Of a stretch of DNA of 64,000 nucleotides, positions 3,279-29,651 are shown one piece after another (within the stretch, counting starts at the first letter, position 1; each line of letters starts with the position of its first letter). Where the stretch lies: assembly GCF_003334385.1 (NCBI RefSeq), contig NZ_QOWN01000016.1; one strand, given 5' to 3'. Origin of the DNA: Escherichia coli (lineage in GTDB: Bacteria > Pseudomonadota > Gammaproteobacteria > Enterobacterales > Enterobacteriaceae). The translations under genes were made by a program, and so were the position numbers. Below the pieces are notes generated by a model, which did no database searches, had not been told where the DNA came from, and worked only from the letters and a program-made list of their open reading frames with translations.

Positions 3279-5246
3279 ATGGGTATTTTCTCCATTGCTA
3301 ACCAACATATTCGCTTTGCGGTAAAACTGGCGACCGCCATTGTACTGGCGCTGTTTGTTGGCTTTCACTTCCAGCTGGAAACGCCACGCTGGGCGGTACT
3401 GACAGCGGCGATTGTTGCCGCCGGTCCGGCCTTTGCTGCGGGAGGTGAACCGTATTCTGGCGCTATTCGCTATCGTGGCTTTTTGCGCATCATCGGCACA
3501 TTTATTGGCTGTATTGCCGGACTGGTGATCATCATTGCGATGATCCGCGCACCATTATTGATGATTCTGGTGTGCTGTATCTGGGCCGGTTTTTGTACCT
3601 GGATATCCTCGCTGGTACGAATAGAAAACTCGTATGCGTGGGGGCTGGCCGGTTATACCGCGCTGATCATTGTGATCACCATTCAGCCGGAACCATTGCT
3701 TACGCCGCAGTTTGCCGTCGAACGTTGTAGCGAGATCGTTATCGGTATTGTGTGTGCGATTATGGCGGATTTGCTCTTTTCTCCGCGATCGATCAAACAA
3801 GAAGTGGATCGAGAGCTGGAAAGTTTGCTGGTCGCGCAATATCAATTAATGCAACTCTGTATCAAGCATGGCGATGGTGAAGTTGTCGATAAAGCCTGGG
3901 GCGACCTGGTGCGACGCACCACGGCGCTACAAGGCATGCGCAGCAACCTGAATATGGAATCTTCCCGCTGGGCGCGGGCCAATCGACGTTTAAAAGCGAT
4001 CAATACGCTATCGCTGACGCTGATTACCCAATCCTGCGAAACTTATCTTATTCAGAATACGCGCCCGGAATTGATCACTGATACTTTCCGCGAATTTTTT
4101 GACACGCCGGTAGAAACCGCGCAGGACGTCCACAAGCAGCTCAAACGCCTGCGGAGAGTTATCGCCTGGACCGGGGAACGGGAAACGCCTGTCACCATTT
4201 ATAGCTGGGTCGCGGCGGCAACGCGTTATCAGCTTCTCAAGCGCGGCGTTATCAGTAACACAAAAATCAACGCCACCGAAGAAGAGATCCTGCAAGGCGA
4301 ACCGGAAGTAAAAGTAGAGTCAGCCGAACGTCATCATGCAATGGTTAACTTCTGGCGAACCACACTTTCCTGCATTCTGGGCACGCTTTTCTGGCTGTGG
4401 ACGGGCTGGACTTCCGGCAGTGGTGCAATGGTGATGATTGCGGTAGTGACGTCACTGGCAATGCGTTTGCCGAATCCACGCATGGTGGCGATCGACTTTA
4501 TCTACGGGACGCTGGCCGCGCTGCCGTTAGGGCTGCTCTACTTTTTGGTGATTATCCCTAATACCCAACAGAGCATGTTGCTGCTGTGCATTAGCCTGGC
4601 AGTGCTGGGATTCTTCCTCGGTATAGAAGTACAGAAACGGCGACTGGGCTCGATGGGGGCACTGGCCAGCACCATAAATATTATCGTGCTGGATAACCCG
4701 ATGACTTTCCATTTCAGTCAGTTTCTCGACAGCGCATTAGGGCAAATCGTCGGCTGTGTGCTCGCGTTCACCGTTATTTTGCTGGTGCGGGATAAATCGC
4801 GCGACAGGACCGGACGTGTACTGCTTAATCAGTTTGTTTCTGCCGCTGTTTCCGCGATGACTACCAATGTGGCACGTCGTAAAGAGAACCACCTCCCGGC
4901 ACTTTATCAGCAGCTGTTTTTGCTGATGAATAAGTTCCCAGGGGATTTGCCGAAATTTCGCCTGGCGCTGACGATGATTATCGCGCACCAGCGCCTGCGT
5001 GATGCACCGATCCCGGTTAACGAGGATTTATCGGCGTTTCACCGACAAATGCGCCGCACAGCAGACCATGTGATATCTGCCCGTAGCGATGATAAACGTC
5101 GTCGGTACTTTGGCCAGTTGCTGGAAGAACTGGAAATCTACCAGGAAAAGCTACGCATCTGGCAAGCGCCACCGCAGGTGACGGAACCGGTAAATCGGCT
5201 GGCGGGGATGCTCCATAAGTATCAACATGCGTTGACCGATAGTTAA
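3279..5246 (+). CDS. aaeB: p-Hydroxybenzoate efflux pump subunit AaeB
   Basis: 655 aa multi-pass membrane protein 5 bp downstream of aaeA; recognised as AaeB. Confidence 0.9.
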
Positions 5247-5929: not shown

Positions 5930-6293
5930 GATTTTTACCTCGACATAATCTTTTAGCTGGGCCTTTGTTTCGTGACCCATATCACAAAATCAAGTATACA
6001 CTAATTATTGAGCTAATTAATACCGCGCTAACTGTTTCAGTTGATACTAAGTGTTAAAAATGTGAATTTTAATAACAAAAAAGAATTAAAAATACGGTTA
6101 TTTATCGTTAATTCTAGTTTTTTCAATTAGATAATGAATTTTGCATAATGTGCTTTTTTTACCTTATGTATTCATTGTGTGAATGACATGTCGCAGTAAA
6201 ACGCACTATTCGTTAAATTAATCGCAGGGGAAAGCAGGGGGTTGAGAGGGATAAGCAACATTTTCCCCGCCGTCAGAAACGACGGGGCAGAGA

Positions 6294-12728: not shown

Positions 12729-13244
<516 letters not shown>

Positions 13245-13256
13245 TCGGGATTATAG

Positions 13257-13652
<396 letters not shown>

Positions 13653-13684
13653 TTGGCTTCTGCTCCGGCAGAAAACAATTTTCG

Positions 13685-13711
13685 AAAAAACCCGCTTCGG
13701 CGGGTTTTTTT
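13685..13711 (+). terminator. Intrinsic terminator of the rplM-rpsI operon
   Basis: AAAAAA-CCCGC-ttcg-GCGGG-TTTTTTT about 35 bp after the rpsI stop. Confidence 0.85.
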
Positions 13712-14046
13712 ATAGCTAAAATCTGAATCAGCGTAAAAACTGGAAAGTTGCTTTTTGCTGCCACCTGACAGACAGGTAAAACAAAAACCACATCGCCAAT
13801 AAGGGACTAAGTCAACTATTTCAGACTAAAGCGCATCTCTTTTTCCCCATTTCCGGCATCGACTCACCACAATGGTCGCAAAATCTGGTAAACTATCATC
13901 CAATTTTCTGCCCAAATGTCGGGTATTGCTCATTTTTTGTTTGATTTTCGAACAAAGAGAGTCGTTCCTTATTGGGTAACACAACTTCTGACTGGCCACC
14001 TGGTGGCTGGTAGCAGTAAAAATTCTGACTATACCTGGAGGTTTTC

Positions 14047-14685
14047 ATGGCTGTCGCTGCCAACAAACGTTCGGTAATGACGCTGTTTTCCGGTCCTACT
14101 GACATCTATAGCCATCAGGTCCGCATTGTGCTGGCTGAGAAAGGTGTAAGTTTCGAGATCGAACACGTGGAAAAGGACAATCCGCCTCAGGATCTGATTG
14201 ACCTCAACCCGAATCAGAGCGTTCCGACCCTGGTGGATCGTGAGCTGACCCTGTGGGAATCTCGCATCATTATGGAATATCTGGATGAGCGTTTCCCGCA
14301 TCCGCCACTGATGCCTGTTTACCCGGTAGCTCGCGGTGAAAGCCGTCTGTACATGCATCGCATCGAAAAAGACTGGTACACGCTGATGAACACCATCATC
14401 AACGGTTCAGCTTCTGAAGCAGATGCCGCACGTAAGCAACTGCGCGAAGAACTGCTGGCGATTGCGCCGGTCTTCGGTCAGAAGCCGTACTTCCTGAGCG
14501 ATGAGTTCAGCCTGGTCGATTGCTATCTTGCTCCGCTGCTGTGGCGTCTGCCGCAACTGGGCATCGAGTTCAGCGGCCCGGGTGCGAAAGAGCTGAAAGG
14601 CTATATGACCCGCGTCTTTGAGCGTGACTCTTTCCTTGCTTCTTTAACTGAAGCAGAACGTGAAATGCGTCTGGGCCGGAGTTAA
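14047..14685 (+). CDS. sspA: Stringent starvation protein A
   Basis: 212 aa GST-like protein; recognised as SspA. Confidence 0.95.
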   Translation: MAVAANKRSVMTLFSGPTDIYSHQVRIVLAEKGVSFEIEHVEKDNPPQDLIDLNPNQSVPTLVDRELTLWESRIIMEYLDERFPHPPLMPVYPVARGESRLYMHRIEKDWYTLMNTIINGSASEADAARKQLREELLAIAPVFGQKPYFLSDEFSLVDCYLAPLLWRLPQLGIEFSGPGAKELKGYMTRVFERDSFLASLTEAEREMRLGRS

Positions 14686-14690
14686 TCTGT

Positions 14691-15188
14691 ATGGATTTGT
14701 CACAGCTAACACCACGTCGTCCCTATCTGCTGCGTGCATTCTATGAGTGGTTGCTGGATAACCAGCTCACGCCGCACCTGGTGGTGGATGTGACGCTCCC
14801 TGGCGTGCAGGTTCCTATGGAATATGCGCGTGACGGGCAAATCGTACTCAACATTGCGCCGCGTGCTGTCGGCAATCTGGAACTGGCGAATGATGAGGTG
14901 CGCTTTAACGCGCGCTTTGGTGGCATTCCGCGTCAGGTTTCTGTGCCGCTGGCTGCCGTGCTGGCTATCTACGCCCGTGAAAATGGCGCAGGCACGATGT
15001 TTGAGCCTGAAGCTGCCTACGATGAAGATACCAACATCATGAATGATGAAGAGGCATCGGCAGACAACGAAACCGTTATGTCGGTTATTGATGGCGACAA
15101 GCCAGATCACGATGATGACACTCATCCTGACGATGAACCTCCGCAGCCACCACGCGGTGGTCGACCGGCATTACGCGTTGTGAAGTAA
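14691..15188 (+). CDS. sspB: ClpXP specificity-enhancing adaptor SspB
   Basis: 165 aa with an acidic C-terminal tail; 5 bp after sspA. Confidence 0.95.
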   Translation: MDLSQLTPRRPYLLRAFYEWLLDNQLTPHLVVDVTLPGVQVPMEYARDGQIVLNIAPRAVGNLELANDEVRFNARFGGIPRQVSVPLAAVLAIYARENGAGTMFEPEAAYDEDTNIMNDEEASADNETVMSVIDGDKPDHDDDTHPDDEPPQPPRGGRPALRVVK

Positions 15189-15190
15189 TA

Positions 15191-15225
15191 CAAAACAGGC
15201 CCAGGCGGCCTGTTTTGTCTTTTTA
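15191..15225. terminator. Bidirectional terminator between convergent sspB and dcuD
   Basis: ACAGGCC-cag-GCGGCCTGT stem flanked by A-rich and T-rich runs in the 42 bp gap. Confidence 0.7.
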
Positions 15226-15230
15226 ATGAC

Positions 15231-16598
15231 TTAATAAAATAGCGTGATTGTGGCAATCATATTCACCACGAAACCGACTGCCATGGGGATCGCTGTCCGC
15301 TTCACCACCGCAAAAGGCGAAACGCCTGCAATTCCTGACGTAACGACCACCACCGCAGTAATCGGCGAAACCGCGCGCGCTAGCGTCGTGGCAAAATGCA
15401 TCGGCATAATCATTACAACCGCTGGTACATGTAGTCCGGCTGCGATATTCGGAATAAGACTGGCAAATGACATAAACGGCGCATTGCCAGAGCCCATCAC
15501 AATGGCACAAATGGCAATGACCAGCGCCATAATAATCATCACGCCAATACCGCCCAGACCAGAATGCTCCGCCCCCCTGATAACCGCATCGACAGTGCCA
15601 ATCGTCGTTAAGCCTTTCGCAAATATTTCACCCGCGACCACCAGCGTTACCACGTTGGCAAACTGCGTACCCATGCCGTCAAAAAACGCCTGCACATCGT
15701 CCATTGTTTCGCGCAAGTTATGCTTGCGGAAGAACTCAACAAACATCGTCACAGTCAAACTCAGTAACATCACCACCACCAGATGCAGTTCTGACTGCAT
15801 CAGCCCGACGTGGGCGAGGAACAGCGAGCCGAGCATCAGGATTAACGGCATCACAGGTAAAATGGCGTAATAGAGCGGCGGGACATTATCGAGAGCTTTT
15901 TGCTCTGCCTGTTCGTGATTGATATTTTTATCTTTTTTGTCAAAAGCGCGTTGCACGAAAAAGTGGGAGATCGCCACCGAGATAATGACGCAAGAGGCGA
16001 CCGGAAGCTGGTAGTGGAAGAAGTATGTGGCAATTTTCATTCCCGCTACCTGGGCAGCAAAAATGGAGTTCGTTTCCAGAATCCCCCACTCAATGGACAT
16101 CGTGGTTGCGATAACTGCCACCGCAGAGAGACGACTTACTCCCAGACTCACCAGCGTCGGAAATAAGGTGACCATCAGCAACATACCCAGACCGGAGGCG
16201 CTGGTAATAAACTGCGCCATGATTTGGCCGATGACGTAAGTTGCCGACAGAATAATATACGGCGAGCGAATGAGTTTTAACGGGCGGCTTAACAAGCTCA
16301 CCATCGCGCGACTGGCCCCTATGCGCTCCATGTAGCGGGCATAACCGCCCACCGCCATAATCGACAGCCCCAATCCGGCAATGCGGTTGGACAGCATGCG
16401 CAGGATTTCATTATAAATATCGACGATCAAGTAGCCGCTGCTTTTGGTGGGATCGAGTACACCACCGAACCCTAACCAGACACCGCACATCATCAGGAAG
16501 ATACCTGCGGCAGCCAGCACCACCTGAGGTTTGTAGTTTTTCAGGATCAAATAGCCCATCGTAATTAATACGATGACAGATATAATTATGCCGAACAT
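15231..16598 (-). CDS. dcuD: DcuC-family anaerobic C4-dicarboxylate transporter homologue
   Basis: 455 aa polytopic membrane protein from [15 protein letters not shown]; recognised as DcuD (YhcL). Confidence 0.85.
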
Positions 16599-16977
16599 TG
16601 TTGAACTCCGTGTCAAAAGAAAACGGTCAATCCCATAAACGGCAGATTGAAAACAACGATGTTATATTTTTTGCAAGGCTATTTATGGTGCGGATGTCGT
16701 GTTTTTAATTGTAGGTGAGGTGATTTTTCATTAAAAAATATGCGCTTATGATTATTTTGTAAGAACACATTCATAATATTCATAATGCTCGTGAATAGTC
16801 TTATAAATAATTCAAACGGGATGTTTTTATCTGCGTTACATTAATTTTTCGCAATAGTTAATTATTCCGTTAATTATGGTAATGATGAGGCACAAAGAGA
16901 AAACCCTGCCATTTTCCCCTACTTTCAATCCTGTGATAGGATGTCACTGATGATGTTAATCACACTGACCTTACAGA

Positions 16978-17769
16978 ATGGGCCTTATGAACGCATTTGA
17001 TTCGCAAACCGAAGATTCTTCACCTGCAATTGGTCGCAACTTGCGTAGCCGCCCGCTGGCGCGTAAAAAACTCTCCGAAATGGTGGAAGAAGAGCTGGAA
17101 CAGATGATCCGCCGTCGTGAATTTGGCGAAGGTGAACAATTACCGTCTGAACGCGAACTGATGGCGTTCTTTAACGTCGGGCGTCCTTCGGTGCGTGAAG
17201 CGCTGGCAGCGTTAAAACGCAAAGGTCTGGTGCAAATAAACAACGGCGAACGCGCTCGCGTCTCGCGTCCTTCTGCGGACACTATCATCGGTGAGCTTTC
17301 CGGCATGGCGAAAGATTTCCTTTCTCATCCCGGTGGGATTGCCCATTTCGAACAATTACGTCTGTTCTTTGAATCCAGTCTGGTGCGCTATGCGGCTGAA
17401 CATGCCACCGATGAGCAAATCGATTTGCTGGCAAAAGCACTGGAAATCAACAGTCAGTCGCTGGATAACAACGCGGCATTCATTCGTTCAGACGTTGATT
17501 TCCACCGCGTGCTGGCGGAGATCCCCGGTAACCCAATCTTCATGGCGATCCACGTTGCCCTGCTCGACTGGCTTATTGCCGCACGCCCAACGGTTACCGA
17601 TCAGGCACTGCACGAACATAACAACGTTAGTTATCAACAGCATATTGCGATCGTTGATGCGATCCGCCGTCATGATCCTGACGAAGCCGATCGTGCGTTG
17701 CAATCGCATCTCAACAGCGTCTCTGCTACCTGGCACGCTTTCGGTCAGACCACCAACAAAAAGAAATAA
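16978..17769 (+). CDS. nanR: GntR/FadR-family repressor of sialic acid catabolism
   Basis: 263 aa; recognised as NanR; GGTATA operator lies downstream in the nanA promoter. Confidence 0.95.
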
Positions 17770-17832
17770 TGCCACTTTAGTGAAGCAGATCGCATTATAA
17801 GCTTTCTGTATGGGGTGTTGCTTAATTGATCT

Positions 17833-17856
17833 GGTATAACAGGTATAAAGGTATAT
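17833..17856 (+). promoter_or_regulatory. NanR operator: three direct GGTATA repeats in the nanA promoter
   Basis: GGTATAACAGGTATAAAGGTATA lies about 35 bp upstream of the nanA start; three evenly spaced GGTATA hexamers is the known NanR site architecture. Confidence 0.75.
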
Positions 17857-17890
17857 CGTTTATCAGACAAGCATCACTTCAGAGGTATTT

Positions 17891-18784
17891 ATGGCAACGA
17901 ATTTACGTGGCGTAATGGCTGCACTCCTGACTCCTTTTGACCAACAACAAGCACTGGATAAAGCGAGTCTGCGTCGCCTGGTTCAGTTCAATATTCAGCA
18001 GGGCATCGACGGTTTATACGTGGGTGGTTCGACCGGCGAGGCCTTTGTACAAAGCCTTTCCGAGCGTGAACAGGTACTGGAAATCGTCGCCGAAGAGGCG
18101 AAAGGTAAGATTAAACTCATCGCCCACGTCGGTTGCGTCAGCACCGCCGAAAGCCAACAACTTGCGGCATCGGCTAAACGTTATGGCTTCGATGCCGTCT
18201 CCGCCGTCACGCCGTTCTACTATCCTTTCAGCTTTGAAGAACACTGCGATCACTATCGGGCAATTATTGATTCGGCGGATGGTTTGCCGATGGTGGTGTA
18301 CAACATTCCAGCCCTGAGTGGGGTAAAACTGACCCTGGATCAGATCAACACACTTGTTACATTGCCTGGCGTAGGTGCGCTGAAACAGACCTCTGGCGAT
18401 CTCTATCAGATGGAGCAGATCCGTCGTGAACATCCTGATCTTGTGCTCTATAACGGTTACGACGAAATCTTCGCCTCTGGTCTGCTGGCGGGCGCTGATG
18501 GTGGTATCGGCAGTACCTACAACATCATGGGCTGGCGCTATCAGGGGATCGTTAAGGCGCTGAAAGAAGGCGATATCCAGACCGCGCAGAAACTGCAAAC
18601 TGAATGCAATAAAGTCATTGATTTACTGATCAAAACGGGCGTATTCCGCGGCCTGAAAACTGTCCTCCATTATATGGATGTCGTTTCTGTGCCGCTGTGC
18701 CGCAAACCGTTTGGACCGGTAGATGAAAAATATCTGCCAGAACTGAAGGCGCTGGCCCAGCAGTTGATGCAAGAGCGCGGGTGA
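17891..18784 (+). CDS. nanA: N-acetylneuraminate lyase
   Basis: 297 aa; recognised as NanA. Confidence 0.95.
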
Positions 18785-18789
18785 GTTGT

Positions 18790-18820
18790 TTCCCCTCGCT
18801 CGCCCCTACCGGGTGAGGGG
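18790..18820. repeat. GC-rich palindromic extragenic element of the same family
   Basis: TTCCCCTCGCTCGCCCCTACCGGGTGAGGGG immediately after the nanA stop. Confidence 0.6.
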
Positions 18821-18892
18821 AAATAAACGCATCTGTACCCTACAATTTTCATACCAAAGCGTGTGGGCATCGCCCACCGCGGGAGACTCACA

Positions 18893-20383
18893 ATGAGTAC
18901 TACAACCCAGAATATCCCGTGGTATCGCCATCTCAACCGTGCACAATGGCGCGCATTTTCCGCTGCCTGGTTGGGATATCTGCTTGACGGTTTTGATTTC
19001 GTTTTAATCGCCCTGGTACTCACCGAAGTACAAGGTGAATTCGGGCTGACGACGGTGCAGGCGGCAAGTCTGATCTCTGCAGCCTTTATCTCTCGCTGGT
19101 TCGGCGGCCTGATGCTCGGCGCTATGGGTGACCGCTACGGGCGTCGTCTGGCAATGGTCACCAGCATCGTTCTCTTCTCGGCCGGGACGCTGGCCTGCGG
19201 CTTTGCGCCAGGCTACATCACCATGTTTATCGCTCGTCTGGTCATCGGCATGGGGATGGCGGGTGAATACGGTTCCAGCGCCACCTATGTCATTGAAAGC
19301 TGGCCAAAACATCTGCGTAACAAAGCCAGTGGTTTTTTGATTTCAGGCTTCTCTGTGGGGGCCGTCGTTGCCGCTCAGGTCTATAGCCTGGTGGTTCCGG
19401 TCTGGGGCTGGCGTGCGCTGTTCTTTATCGGCATTTTGCCAATCATCTTTGCTCTCTGGCTGCGTAAAAACATCCCGGAAGCGGAAGACTGGAAAGAGAA
19501 ACACGCAGGTAAAGCACCAGTACGCACAATGGTGGATATTCTCTACCGTGGTGAACATCGCATTGCCAATATCGTAATGACACTGGCGGCGGCTACTGCG
19601 CTGTGGTTCTGCTTCGCCGGTAACCTGCAAAATGCCGCGATCGTCGCTGTTCTTGGGCTGTTATGCGCCGCAATCTTTATCAGCTTTATGGTGCAGAGTA
19701 CAGGCAAACGCTGGCCAACGGGCGTAATGCTGATGGTGGTCGTGTTGTTTGCTTTCCTCTACTCATGGCCGATTCAGGCGCTGCTGCCAACGTATCTGAA
19801 AACCGATCTGGCTTATAACCCGCATACTGTAGCCAATGTGCTGTTCTTTAGTGGCTTTGGCGCGGCGGTGGGATGCTGCGTAGGTGGCTTCCTCGGTGAC
19901 TGGCTGGGAACCCGCAAAGCGTACGTTTGTAGCCTGCTGGCCTCGCAGCTGCTGATTATTCCGGTATTTGCGATTGGCGGCGCAAACGTCTGGGTGCTCG
20001 GTCTGTTACTGTTCTTCCAGCAAATGCTTGGACAAGGGATCGCCGGGATCTTACCAAAACTGATTGGCGGTTATTTCGATACCGACCAGCGTGCAGCGGG
20101 CCTGGGCTTTACCTACAACGTTGGCGCATTGGGCGGTGCACTGGCCCCAATCATCGGCGCGTTGATCGCTCAACGTCTGGATCTGGGTACTGCGCTGGCA
20201 TCGCTCTCGTTCAGTCTGACGTTCGTGGTGATCCTGCTGATTGGGCTGGATATGCCTTCTCGCGTTCAGCGTTGGTTGCGCCCGGAAGCGTTGCGTACTC
20301 ATGACGCTATCGACGGTAAACCATTCAGCGGTGCCGTGCCGTTTGGCAGCGCCAAAAACGATTTAGTCAAAACCAAAAGTTAA
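18893..20383 (+). CDS. nanT: Sialic acid MFS transporter
   Basis: 496 aa from [15 protein letters not shown]; the track ORF is over-extended by 10 codons. Confidence 0.93.
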
Positions 20384-28156: not shown

Positions 28157-28327
28157 TTAAATTAAAACTCCTGTAATAATGATAAATAACGCAGAAACAT
28201 ATTGTTAATATATGTTATGCACTGTTTGCGATGAGATTGATTAAGACAGACCATGTCATAGGGCATAATCTGTCCGAGTTATAGCTAACTGGTTAATGCG
28301 TAAAAATAAAAACTGTATTACAAGTTC

Positions 28328-29092: not shown

Positions 29093-29611
29093 ATGAACAT
29101 ATCCTTAATAACAAATTTATTTTTTAAAATAAAAAGCTGAAGCAGTATATATATCTGTTTGTGAATGTAAATAAATAACTCGTTCAGAAATAGCCAACTT
29201 GCTGGGATGTATTTATTTAATGAATTTTATAGTTACGATCATGTGAATAATAAGGTGCTGGTGAGGTGGTTTGTGGTGATAATTATTCATTACATGAATG
29301 TTTGCGCTGAAAAATAGGAAAATATATAGATAATTAAGGATAATATATTGGTTTTTTATATTCATATTTTGTATATTAATATCGAGACAATTTACATGGA
29401 ATGAAAAGACTGAATAGCTTGCAGAATCGGTATTGTCAGAGGTGTTAACAAGTAATTGAGACGGATTGTAAATGAGAAATTGCTTGATGTGCTTCACTCA
29501 TCAGACTTGGTGAACAAAGCACAATTTATTGAAAATTATCCCTATTATAGGAAAGGTCAAACGCTCATGCCGCATTTGCCAGAAAACAACGCGCACTTCG
29601 TCAGTAATTTG

Positions 29612-29636
29612 ATTCGCCAGACACAGTCTGGCGAAT
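29612..29636. repeat. Palindromic element, CAGAC-N3-GTCTG family, copy 5 (extragenic, just downstream of gltD)
   Basis: ATTCGCCAGAC-aca-GTCTGGCGAAT with perfect 11 bp arms; arms identical to intragenic copy 4. Confidence 0.8.
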
Positions 29637-29651
29637 TCATTGTTACCTCGC

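Follow-up and report, generated by a model that had tools for sequence, protein, structure and literature searches.

Why does Escherichia coli keep dcuD, a gene for a putative C4-dicarboxylate transporter that seems to stay silent in the laboratory? In the 64,000-nt stretch of E. coli DNA analyzed here (the window), dcuD is preceded by a long and very AT-rich region, and an original prediction made from the sequence took such a region to be typical of poorly expressed or silenced genes. Poor expression of dcuD is already established by published work: Janausch & Unden (1999), as cited in PMC6414658, described a "lack of evident expression", which agrees with what had been predicted. Published work likewise gives no evident DcuD expression or activity, and the K-12 annotation labels the transporter putative. 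Phenotypes of dcuD mutants have been reported during glycerol fermentation at pH 7.5 and 5.5, which implies some expression. The gene, its laboratory silence, and its neighbors are thus already known and belong to ordinary K-12 annotation. The question is what kind of silence this is: that of foreign DNA held down, of a decaying gene, or of a conserved gene whose promoter awaits a signal.

Identity of the locus and of its transporter

The layout of the locus was taken from the RefSeq annotations of a strain identical to the window over 15100-17100 and of K-12 MG1655, and the two agree. Because these annotations match the layout of the window, the region is that of E. coli rplM-rpsI-sspA-sspB, followed by dcuD on the minus strand and then by nanR-nanATEK. 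A megablast search with 15100-17100 gave a match in all 5426 complete E. coli genomes, several of which are 100% identical. The dcuD coding sequence (15231-16598, minus strand) specifies 455 residues plus the stop codon. Its convergent neighbor is sspB (14691-15188, plus strand) and its divergent neighbor is nanR (16978-17769, plus strand), both given by the open reading frame list and by RefSeq. The divergent arrangement of dcuD and nanR that had been proposed is borne out by these annotated coordinates.

The product is a DcuC-family transporter of the DcuD type according to RefSeq, Pfam, and NCBIfam. Pfam DcuC (PF03606) covers residues 2-454 (E 3.4e-142), and the score on TIGR00771 is 676.9 bits (cut-off 187). 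The NCBIfam model of the DcuD orthologue group, NF007317 (PRK09804), matches residues 1-455 with 1029.7 bits (cut-off 623), whereas the model for DcuC proper, NF007937, gives 370 bits and falls under its cut-off of 513. Since the first model is passed and the second is failed, the protein is the DcuD paralogue, and the gene name first assigned has the backing of the NCBIfam profile as well as of the RefSeq/K-12 annotation, in which the K-12 product is called "putative transporter DcuD". Note that the automatic RefSeq product name in the identical strain reads "DcuC" despite the DcuD-type profile scores.

Translation start and composition of the upstream region

Translation of dcuD starts with the ATG at 16598, a codon shared without exception by 13 aligned Escherichia and Citrobacter sequences. 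A Shine-Dalgarno sequence, GGAG (16606-16609, minus strand), lies 7 nt upstream of it; GGAGT is invariant in the same 13 sequences and the GGAGT-N-ATG arrangement is conserved throughout the alignment. The longest open reading frame starts farther upstream at a TTG (16616), which is CTG in Citrobacter. This TTG had set the left edge of the upstream region at 16617, an edge that has to give way to the conserved ATG. With the start at 16598 the spacer between dcuD and nanR is 16599-16977, or 379 bp. The predicted length of about 380 bp was therefore right, whereas the coordinates given with it (16617-16977) were TTG-based and span 361 bp.

The spacer is indeed very AT-rich: its GC content is 33.5%, whereas the whole window has 50.9% and the dcuD coding sequence 51.0%. 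GC falls to 27% in a 200-bp core, and only 0.9% of 379-bp segments are as low in GC as the whole spacer. We ranked it among the 40 intergenic spacers that measure 30 bp or more in the RefSeq gene table of the window. By GC content it comes third from the bottom (median 42.6%) and last of the nine divergent spacers; by length it comes fifth (median 154 bp). Similar AT-rich spacers are found in the same 64 kb at yhcA/gltF, gltF/gltD, and yhcN/argR. The AT-rich spacer of dcuD is a real feature and is not unique in the window. Repeats within it are short two-copy matches, except for a tandem pair of ATTCATAAT at 16769-16786. An Rfam scan of 13000-19000 (E up to 1) gave no match in the spacer or the dcuD leader and sub-threshold matches elsewhere.

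Most of the spacer is lost together with dcuD

The full dcuD locus is present in 4344 of the 5426 complete E. coli genomes, and 1040 (19%) carry an "empty" junction in its place. In these genomes ~4 nt separate the sspB terminator from sequence homologous to the window from 16906 onward. The missing segment (15218-16905, 1688 bp) comprises dcuD and 307 bp of AT-rich DNA. As outgroups carry dcuD, its absence represents loss. Genomes with the empty junction include ATCC 11775, Nissle 1917, NU14, and an O25b:H4 isolate, all of which we take to belong to phylogroup B2.

Because the genomes that lack dcuD also lack the 307 bp, the AT-rich part of the spacer belongs to dcuD. This dcuD-specific upstream region (16599-16905, minus strand), lost with the gene in B2-type genomes, has 31.6% GC, and ~35% of its bases fall in A/T runs of 6 or more. 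The 1040 genomes keep nanR and the 72 bp next to it, so nanR can function with these proximal 72 bp alone. The original prediction had the whole spacer shared between dcuD and nanR. It is shared in the sense that it separates two divergent genes, but 307 of its 379 bp go with dcuD, which leaves 72 bp.

These 72 bp (16906-16977, plus strand; 41.7% GC) are retained in genomes without dcuD and are probably the nanR promoter region. They contain TTCCCC-17-TAGGAT at 16914-16942 and the palindrome ATCCTGTGATAGGAT at 16928-16942, both within a conserved nanR-proximal block. In the dcuD-less genomes the 72 bp are ~70% identical to the window and the first 100 nt of nanR ~85% identical, which is unusually divergent; elsewhere in the nan region, 100-nt segments show 91-100% identity, and most of them reach at least 95%.

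Inheritance of dcuD and selection on it

When one genome per species was scanned for DcuD, the protein turned up in about 15 Citrobacter species and in three lineages of Escherichia beyond E. coli proper, with identities of 87-98%. In every such case the gene lies between nanR-nanA-nanT and sspB-sspA. DcuD is 88-90% identical to its Citrobacter counterparts, a divergence that resembles those of NanR, NanA, and SspB. The 455-codon frame is intact in every locus examined, and dN/dS is 0.03-0.05 against the Escherichia clades and Citrobacter, synonymous sites being saturated between the genera. The upstream region has kept its character as well: in 18 loci the spacer to nanR measures 356-387 bp and has 29-35% GC, and dcuD itself has 49-55% GC.

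The synteny, the congruent divergence, and the low dN/dS indicate that dcuD has long stood at this position, has been inherited vertically, and is subject to strong purifying selection. Recent horizontal acquisition was considered and rejected in view of the conserved synteny, the divergence congruent with that of the flanking genes, and the normal GC content. Neither the atypical gene composition nor the patchy, non-syntenic distribution of genes of xenogeneic origin is seen for dcuD. On these comparative sequence grounds dcuD is neither foreign DNA nor a decaying gene.

Invariant elements and promoter signals in the spacer

Alignment of 13 Escherichia and Citrobacter sequences gave conserved islands within an otherwise variable AT-rich spacer. 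The first one upstream of the Shine-Dalgarno sequence is a 14-mer, AAAAATATAACATC (16658-16671, minus strand), which is invariant in 13/13 sequences and contains a -10-like TATAAC ~60 nt upstream of the ATG. No -35 match that pairs with this TATAAC was found on the dcuD strand. The conserved CCATAAA (16682-16688, minus strand) sits where such a -35 element would be. Farther upstream a conserved block (16735-16790) keeps a constant distance of 181-186 nt to the dcuD ATG and reads TGAA-N6-GAA-N2-TG...ATCATAA on the dcuD strand. On the plus strand this block overlaps two sigma-70-like sites, TTTTCA-16-TATGAT and TTGTAA-18-CATAAT. The 14-mer is a candidate for a core promoter element or for a site at which a regulator binds; alternatively, a repressor might bind it, or it might act for nanR.

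Sigma-70 matches on the dcuD strand reach 8/12 at best, and that strand of the spacer has no good sigma-70 promoter. A motif scan found no FNR, CRP, NarL, or NanR box on the dcuD side of the spacer, and scans of the spacer for IHF, Fis, ArcA, and NagC-like sites gave nothing convincing on that side. The best match to the FNR box (TTGAT-N4-ATCAA) has 2 mismatches and is located at 16950, by the nanR start and far from dcuD. A CRP-like site, also with 2 mismatches, lies nearby at 16949-16964 and is not conserved in Citrobacter. A published list of FNR-dependent operons has dcuB and dcuC, without dcuD. A weak promoter that has no -35 element and is built around an invariant sequence is the typical activator-dependent pattern, and it is on this pattern that we base an activator-dependent reading of dcuD.

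Alternative explanations of the upstream region

Instead, H-NS filaments might nucleate on the AT-rich spacer and block a dcuD promoter that would otherwise be competent. This would be silencing of the pure xenogeneic type, the model implied by the original prediction. We regard this as a serious but rather unlikely account. The AT-richness over hundreds of bp that marks H-NS loci is present, but in the spacer only: the dcuD-specific 307 bp have 31.6% GC with a core of 27-28% and about 35% of bases in A/T runs of at least 6, and the spacer is among the lowest-GC ones in the window. It is also an insertion-sequence target, having received IS1 in strain I3 and IS5 during laboratory evolution, and IS5 often inserts into H-NS-bound regulatory regions. 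The reported silence of dcuD points the same way. Against this, the spacer has no site within one mismatch of the high-affinity motif of H-NS, TCGATAAATT, and one site with two mismatches, and the dcuD strand offers no good sigma-70 promoter to occlude. Moreover, a foreign origin is contradicted by the 51% GC of the coding sequence and by the vertical inheritance of the locus. Invariant blocks at fixed distances from the ATG and a dN/dS of 0.03-0.05 likewise speak against plain silencing of DNA that is foreign or in decay. A literature search for dcuD together with H-NS found no link drawn between them in full texts, and dcuD/b3227 is absent from the 42 supplementary files of the IPOD-HR paper.

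A second possibility is that the spacer is mainly a regulatory region or leader of nanR and that dcuD is silent for want of a promoter of its own. The two best sigma-70-like sites of the spacer face nanR, and the -10 TATGAT and -35 TTTTCR of one nanR-facing site are conserved in Citrobacter. As these sites fall in 16735-16790, part of the 307 bp may act on nanR in strains that carry it. The IS5 insertions in the spacer fit that idea, since laboratory evolution selected them beside other nan-regulatory mutations. We consider it improbable that this is the main function of the region, given that nanR is intact with just 72 bp of spacer in 1040 genomes. The invariant elements, moreover, are near dcuD and at fixed distances from its ATG, and purifying selection on dcuD requires that the gene be expressed somewhere.

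It has also been proposed that dcuD has a sigma-54 promoter. PMC3118216 counts dcuD among the sigma-54-dependent promoters of RegulonDB, and in PMC12316311 the sequence of the E. coli dcuD promoter is stated to be TGGCAG-N7-CTCTT, an example that deviates from the consensus. The motif is present in the window (TGGCAGGGTTTTCTCT, 16895-16911, minus strand), and the gene would then be silent because the enhancer-binding activator is inactive. That dcuD uses this promoter seems very unlikely, and the motif itself is probably not functional. It departs from the consensus at three positions and has no -12 GC element; it is mutated in the other Escherichia clades and absent in Citrobacter, which confines it to E. 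coli among the loci compared. Genome-wide sigma-54 ChIP-seq placed no site in the spacer, the sole site assigned to dcuD being 2253 bp away. Neither the conserved -24 GG/-12 GC pair nor the in vivo binding of a sigma-54 promoter is thus found at dcuD.

Control of dcuD by a small leader peptide (MNIMNVFLQNNHK...) encoded in the block 16679-16783 (minus strand) is highly improbable. A frame starting with ATG, GTG, or TTG does occur at the same distance from dcuD in 16/19 sequences, and some of its substitutions are synonymous (AAT/AAC, CAT/CAC). The small open reading frame (16783-16679, minus strand) was nevertheless rejected. Its Shine-Dalgarno sequence is not conserved, its length ranges from 16 to 34 residues, and there is no third-position bias, the third positions of codons 4 and 7 being invariant and the first and second positions of these two codons variable. 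Nor does the K-12 annotation have a small protein there.

Lastly, we give almost no credence to the view that dcuD is decaying toward a pseudogene behind an unconstrained AT-rich spacer: the laboratory silence, the loss of dcuD in 19% of complete genomes, and an IS element upstream of dcuD in one strain would fit it, but it is contradicted by a dN/dS of 0.03-0.05 with saturated synonymous divergence between genera, by a frame intact in all loci examined, and by the invariant non-coding blocks of the spacer.

The hairpin between sspB and dcuD

The stop codon of sspB reaches to 15188 and that of dcuD lies from 15231 on; the spacer between them (15189-15230) is exactly 42 bp, the distance first given. 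Terminator scanning and folding place a hairpin there at 15190-15218, the intrinsic terminator of sspAB and the probable one of dcuD. It has a 12-bp stem (6 G-C pairs) and a 5-nt loop, and its folding energy is -19.0 kcal/mol on the plus strand (z -3.3) and -20.7 kcal/mol on the minus strand (z -4.9). None of 200 shuffled sequences was as stable. The stem, AAACAGGCC...GGCCTGTTT, is kept in 16/16 Escherichia and Citrobacter loci examined, in which the spacer measures 42-56 bp, and the same stem is still present in genomes without dcuD.

The consensus terminator scan reports the hairpin in the sspB (plus) direction only, where the tail is CTTTTT. In the dcuD (minus) direction the tail past the G+C core is TTTTGTATT, an interrupted or weak U-tract, for which the scan gives no report; in most Citrobacter this tail is TTTGATT. 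The bidirectional terminator originally described therefore holds in part: a single hairpin is shared and is recognized in the sspB direction, but the dcuD direction fails the scan. The label "bidirectional" is plausible, and the shared hairpin probably also terminates dcuD transcripts. As dcuD is silent, termination in its direction may rarely matter.

Another terminator-like hairpin, inside dcuD (16556-16576, minus strand), was examined and rejected. Its stem is conserved and its T-run is lost in Citrobacter. Since the scan gave 5 sites vs 3.8 expected, this intragenic hairpin was put down to coding constraint or chance.

Discussion

We hold with moderate confidence that dcuD is a functional DcuC-family transporter gene that is kept by selection and is transcriptionally off in the laboratory, a weak activator-dependent promoter being the likeliest reason. 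Its control region is the AT-rich 307 bp (16599-16905), at whose dcuD end the translation signals (GGAG, ATG) are intact. The dcuD strand of this region has neither a competent sigma-70 promoter nor sites for the regulators that activate the other dcu genes. The candidate for a weak promoter is the invariant TATAAC, with CCATAAA in the -35 place, and such a promoter would require some regulator or signal. H-NS or other nucleoid proteins that coat the AT-rich DNA may deepen the silence. DNA of this composition is one that H-NS could plausibly bind, and the silence may owe something both to H-NS and to the need for an activator. The 72 bp adjacent to nanR would serve nanR, and the conserved hairpin would end sspAB transcripts and probably dcuD transcripts too.

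A bolder proposal, which we put forward tentatively, is that the conserved elements at fixed positions (AAAAATATAACATC, CCATAAA, and 16735-16790) mark a promoter that is activated in the natural niche by some regulator and that DcuD has a real physiological role. If true, that role would perhaps be tied to the neighboring sialic-acid genes or to gut dicarboxylates, and the B2 lineage would have dispensed with it. The value added by the analysis is a sharper framing of why a "cryptic" transporter gene persists. The comparative facts point to specific sequences for mutation and to naturally dcuD-less strains for comparison.

The closest known system is dcuD of K-12 (b3227, formerly yhcL), the "cryptic" fourth Dcu carrier, which is the same gene with the same 455-aa product. 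The spacers in MG1655 have the same lengths as in the window, 379 bp on the nanR side (K-12 3,374,490-3,374,868) and 42 bp on the sspB side (K-12 3,376,237-3,376,278). Nothing material differs between the two, and the window is identical to strain A37 over 15100-17100. E. coli dcuC belongs to the same protein family (PF03606, TIGR00771) and presumably shares its substrate class with dcuD. In their regulation the genes differ: dcuB and dcuC encode FNR-activated anaerobic C4-dicarboxylate carriers, whereas dcuD has no FNR box.

H-NS-silenced cryptic loci such as bgl and the yhcA-F/gltF fimbrial-like cluster in the window share with dcuD a long AT-rich regulatory region, laboratory silence, and insertion-sequence hits in that regulatory region. 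Unlike these loci, dcuD has a coding region that is not AT-rich and a locus that is conserved and vertically inherited across genera, and a role of H-NS at dcuD is putative.

The hairpin downstream of dcuD also has known counterparts. Bidirectional intrinsic terminators between convergent genes were reportedly surveyed by SEnd-seq by Ju and co-workers in 2019. The hairpin in the window differs from such terminators in its dcuD-direction T-tract, which is broken up (TTTTGTATT) and is not recognized by the consensus scan. It resembles them in consisting of one G+C-rich hairpin between an A-tract and a T-tract, in lying within a 42-bp convergent spacer, and in being conserved across genera.

Absence of dcuD from part of E. 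coli

The dcuD gene, together with the 307 bp upstream of it, was missing from 1040 of 5426 complete E. coli genomes (window 15218-16905; 4090-4200 at L002, a locus carrying the dcuD-less junction). The genomes lacking the gene include ATCC 11775, Nissle 1917, NU14, and one O25b:H4 strain, and in such genomes the sspB terminator, a hairpin at 15190-15218 of the window, is separated from the nanR start by ~77 bp. Because the outgroups (Escherichia lineages outside E. coli proper plus Citrobacter species) have dcuD, its absence from the 1040 genomes is a loss.

The edge of the deletion borders a short, strongly divergent patch (window 16906-17077; L002 4124-4296). In genomes without dcuD, identity to the window is only ~70% across the 72 bp preceding nanR and ~85% across the first 100 nt of that gene, and the NanR N-terminus reads MSPMNAFDPQAEDSTTT, which is unlike the 17 residues found in the window. 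The remainder of the nan region gave 91-100% identity per 100-nt window, with most values being at least 95%.

The dcuD-nanR spacer

An IS1 element is present within the AT-rich dcuD-nanR spacer of strain I3 (2155-2852 of its locus, L038), ~150 bp upstream of dcuD in window terms. Three further spacers of the window match that between dcuD and nanR (16599-16977; 33.5% GC) in AT-richness: yhcA/gltF (28157-28327, 30.4% GC), gltF/gltD (29093-29651, 32.0% GC), and yhcN/argR (5930-6293, 34.3% GC). A preprint describes an identical IS5 insertion in the dcuD-nanR spacer in two laboratory-evolved lineages, and this spacer seems to be an insertion-sequence target.

Regulator sites near dcuD and the nan genes

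A CRP-like site with two mismatches, TGTGATTAACATCATC (16949-16964), occupies the stretch 14-29 bp before the nanR ATG and was not conserved in Citrobacter. Upstream of nanA are three GGTATA repeats, GGTATAACAGGTATAAAGGTATA (17833-17855, plus strand), which form the NanR operator already described; the dcuD-nanR spacer contains no repeats of this kind. The sigma-54 ChIP-seq site OA06, TTGGTATGAAAATTGTA (18841-18857, minus strand), is located in the nanA-nanT spacer antisense to the nan operon, and was attributed by its authors to dcuD, 2253 bp downstream (PMC4591121). A GalR site inside dcuD, GTGGGATCGAGTACAC (16447-16462, minus strand), is a bioinformatic prediction only (PMC5110547).

Remoter DcuD relatives

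The next-closest DcuD relatives found have 42-44% identity and are encoded by genomes of Succiniclasticum and other Acidaminococcaceae or Selenomonadales (loci L023-L035), the source of which was rumen and gut samples. A protein with 75% identity is encoded on a 2.8-kb contig binned as 'Negativicutes' (L019 710-2074), which may be mis-binned.
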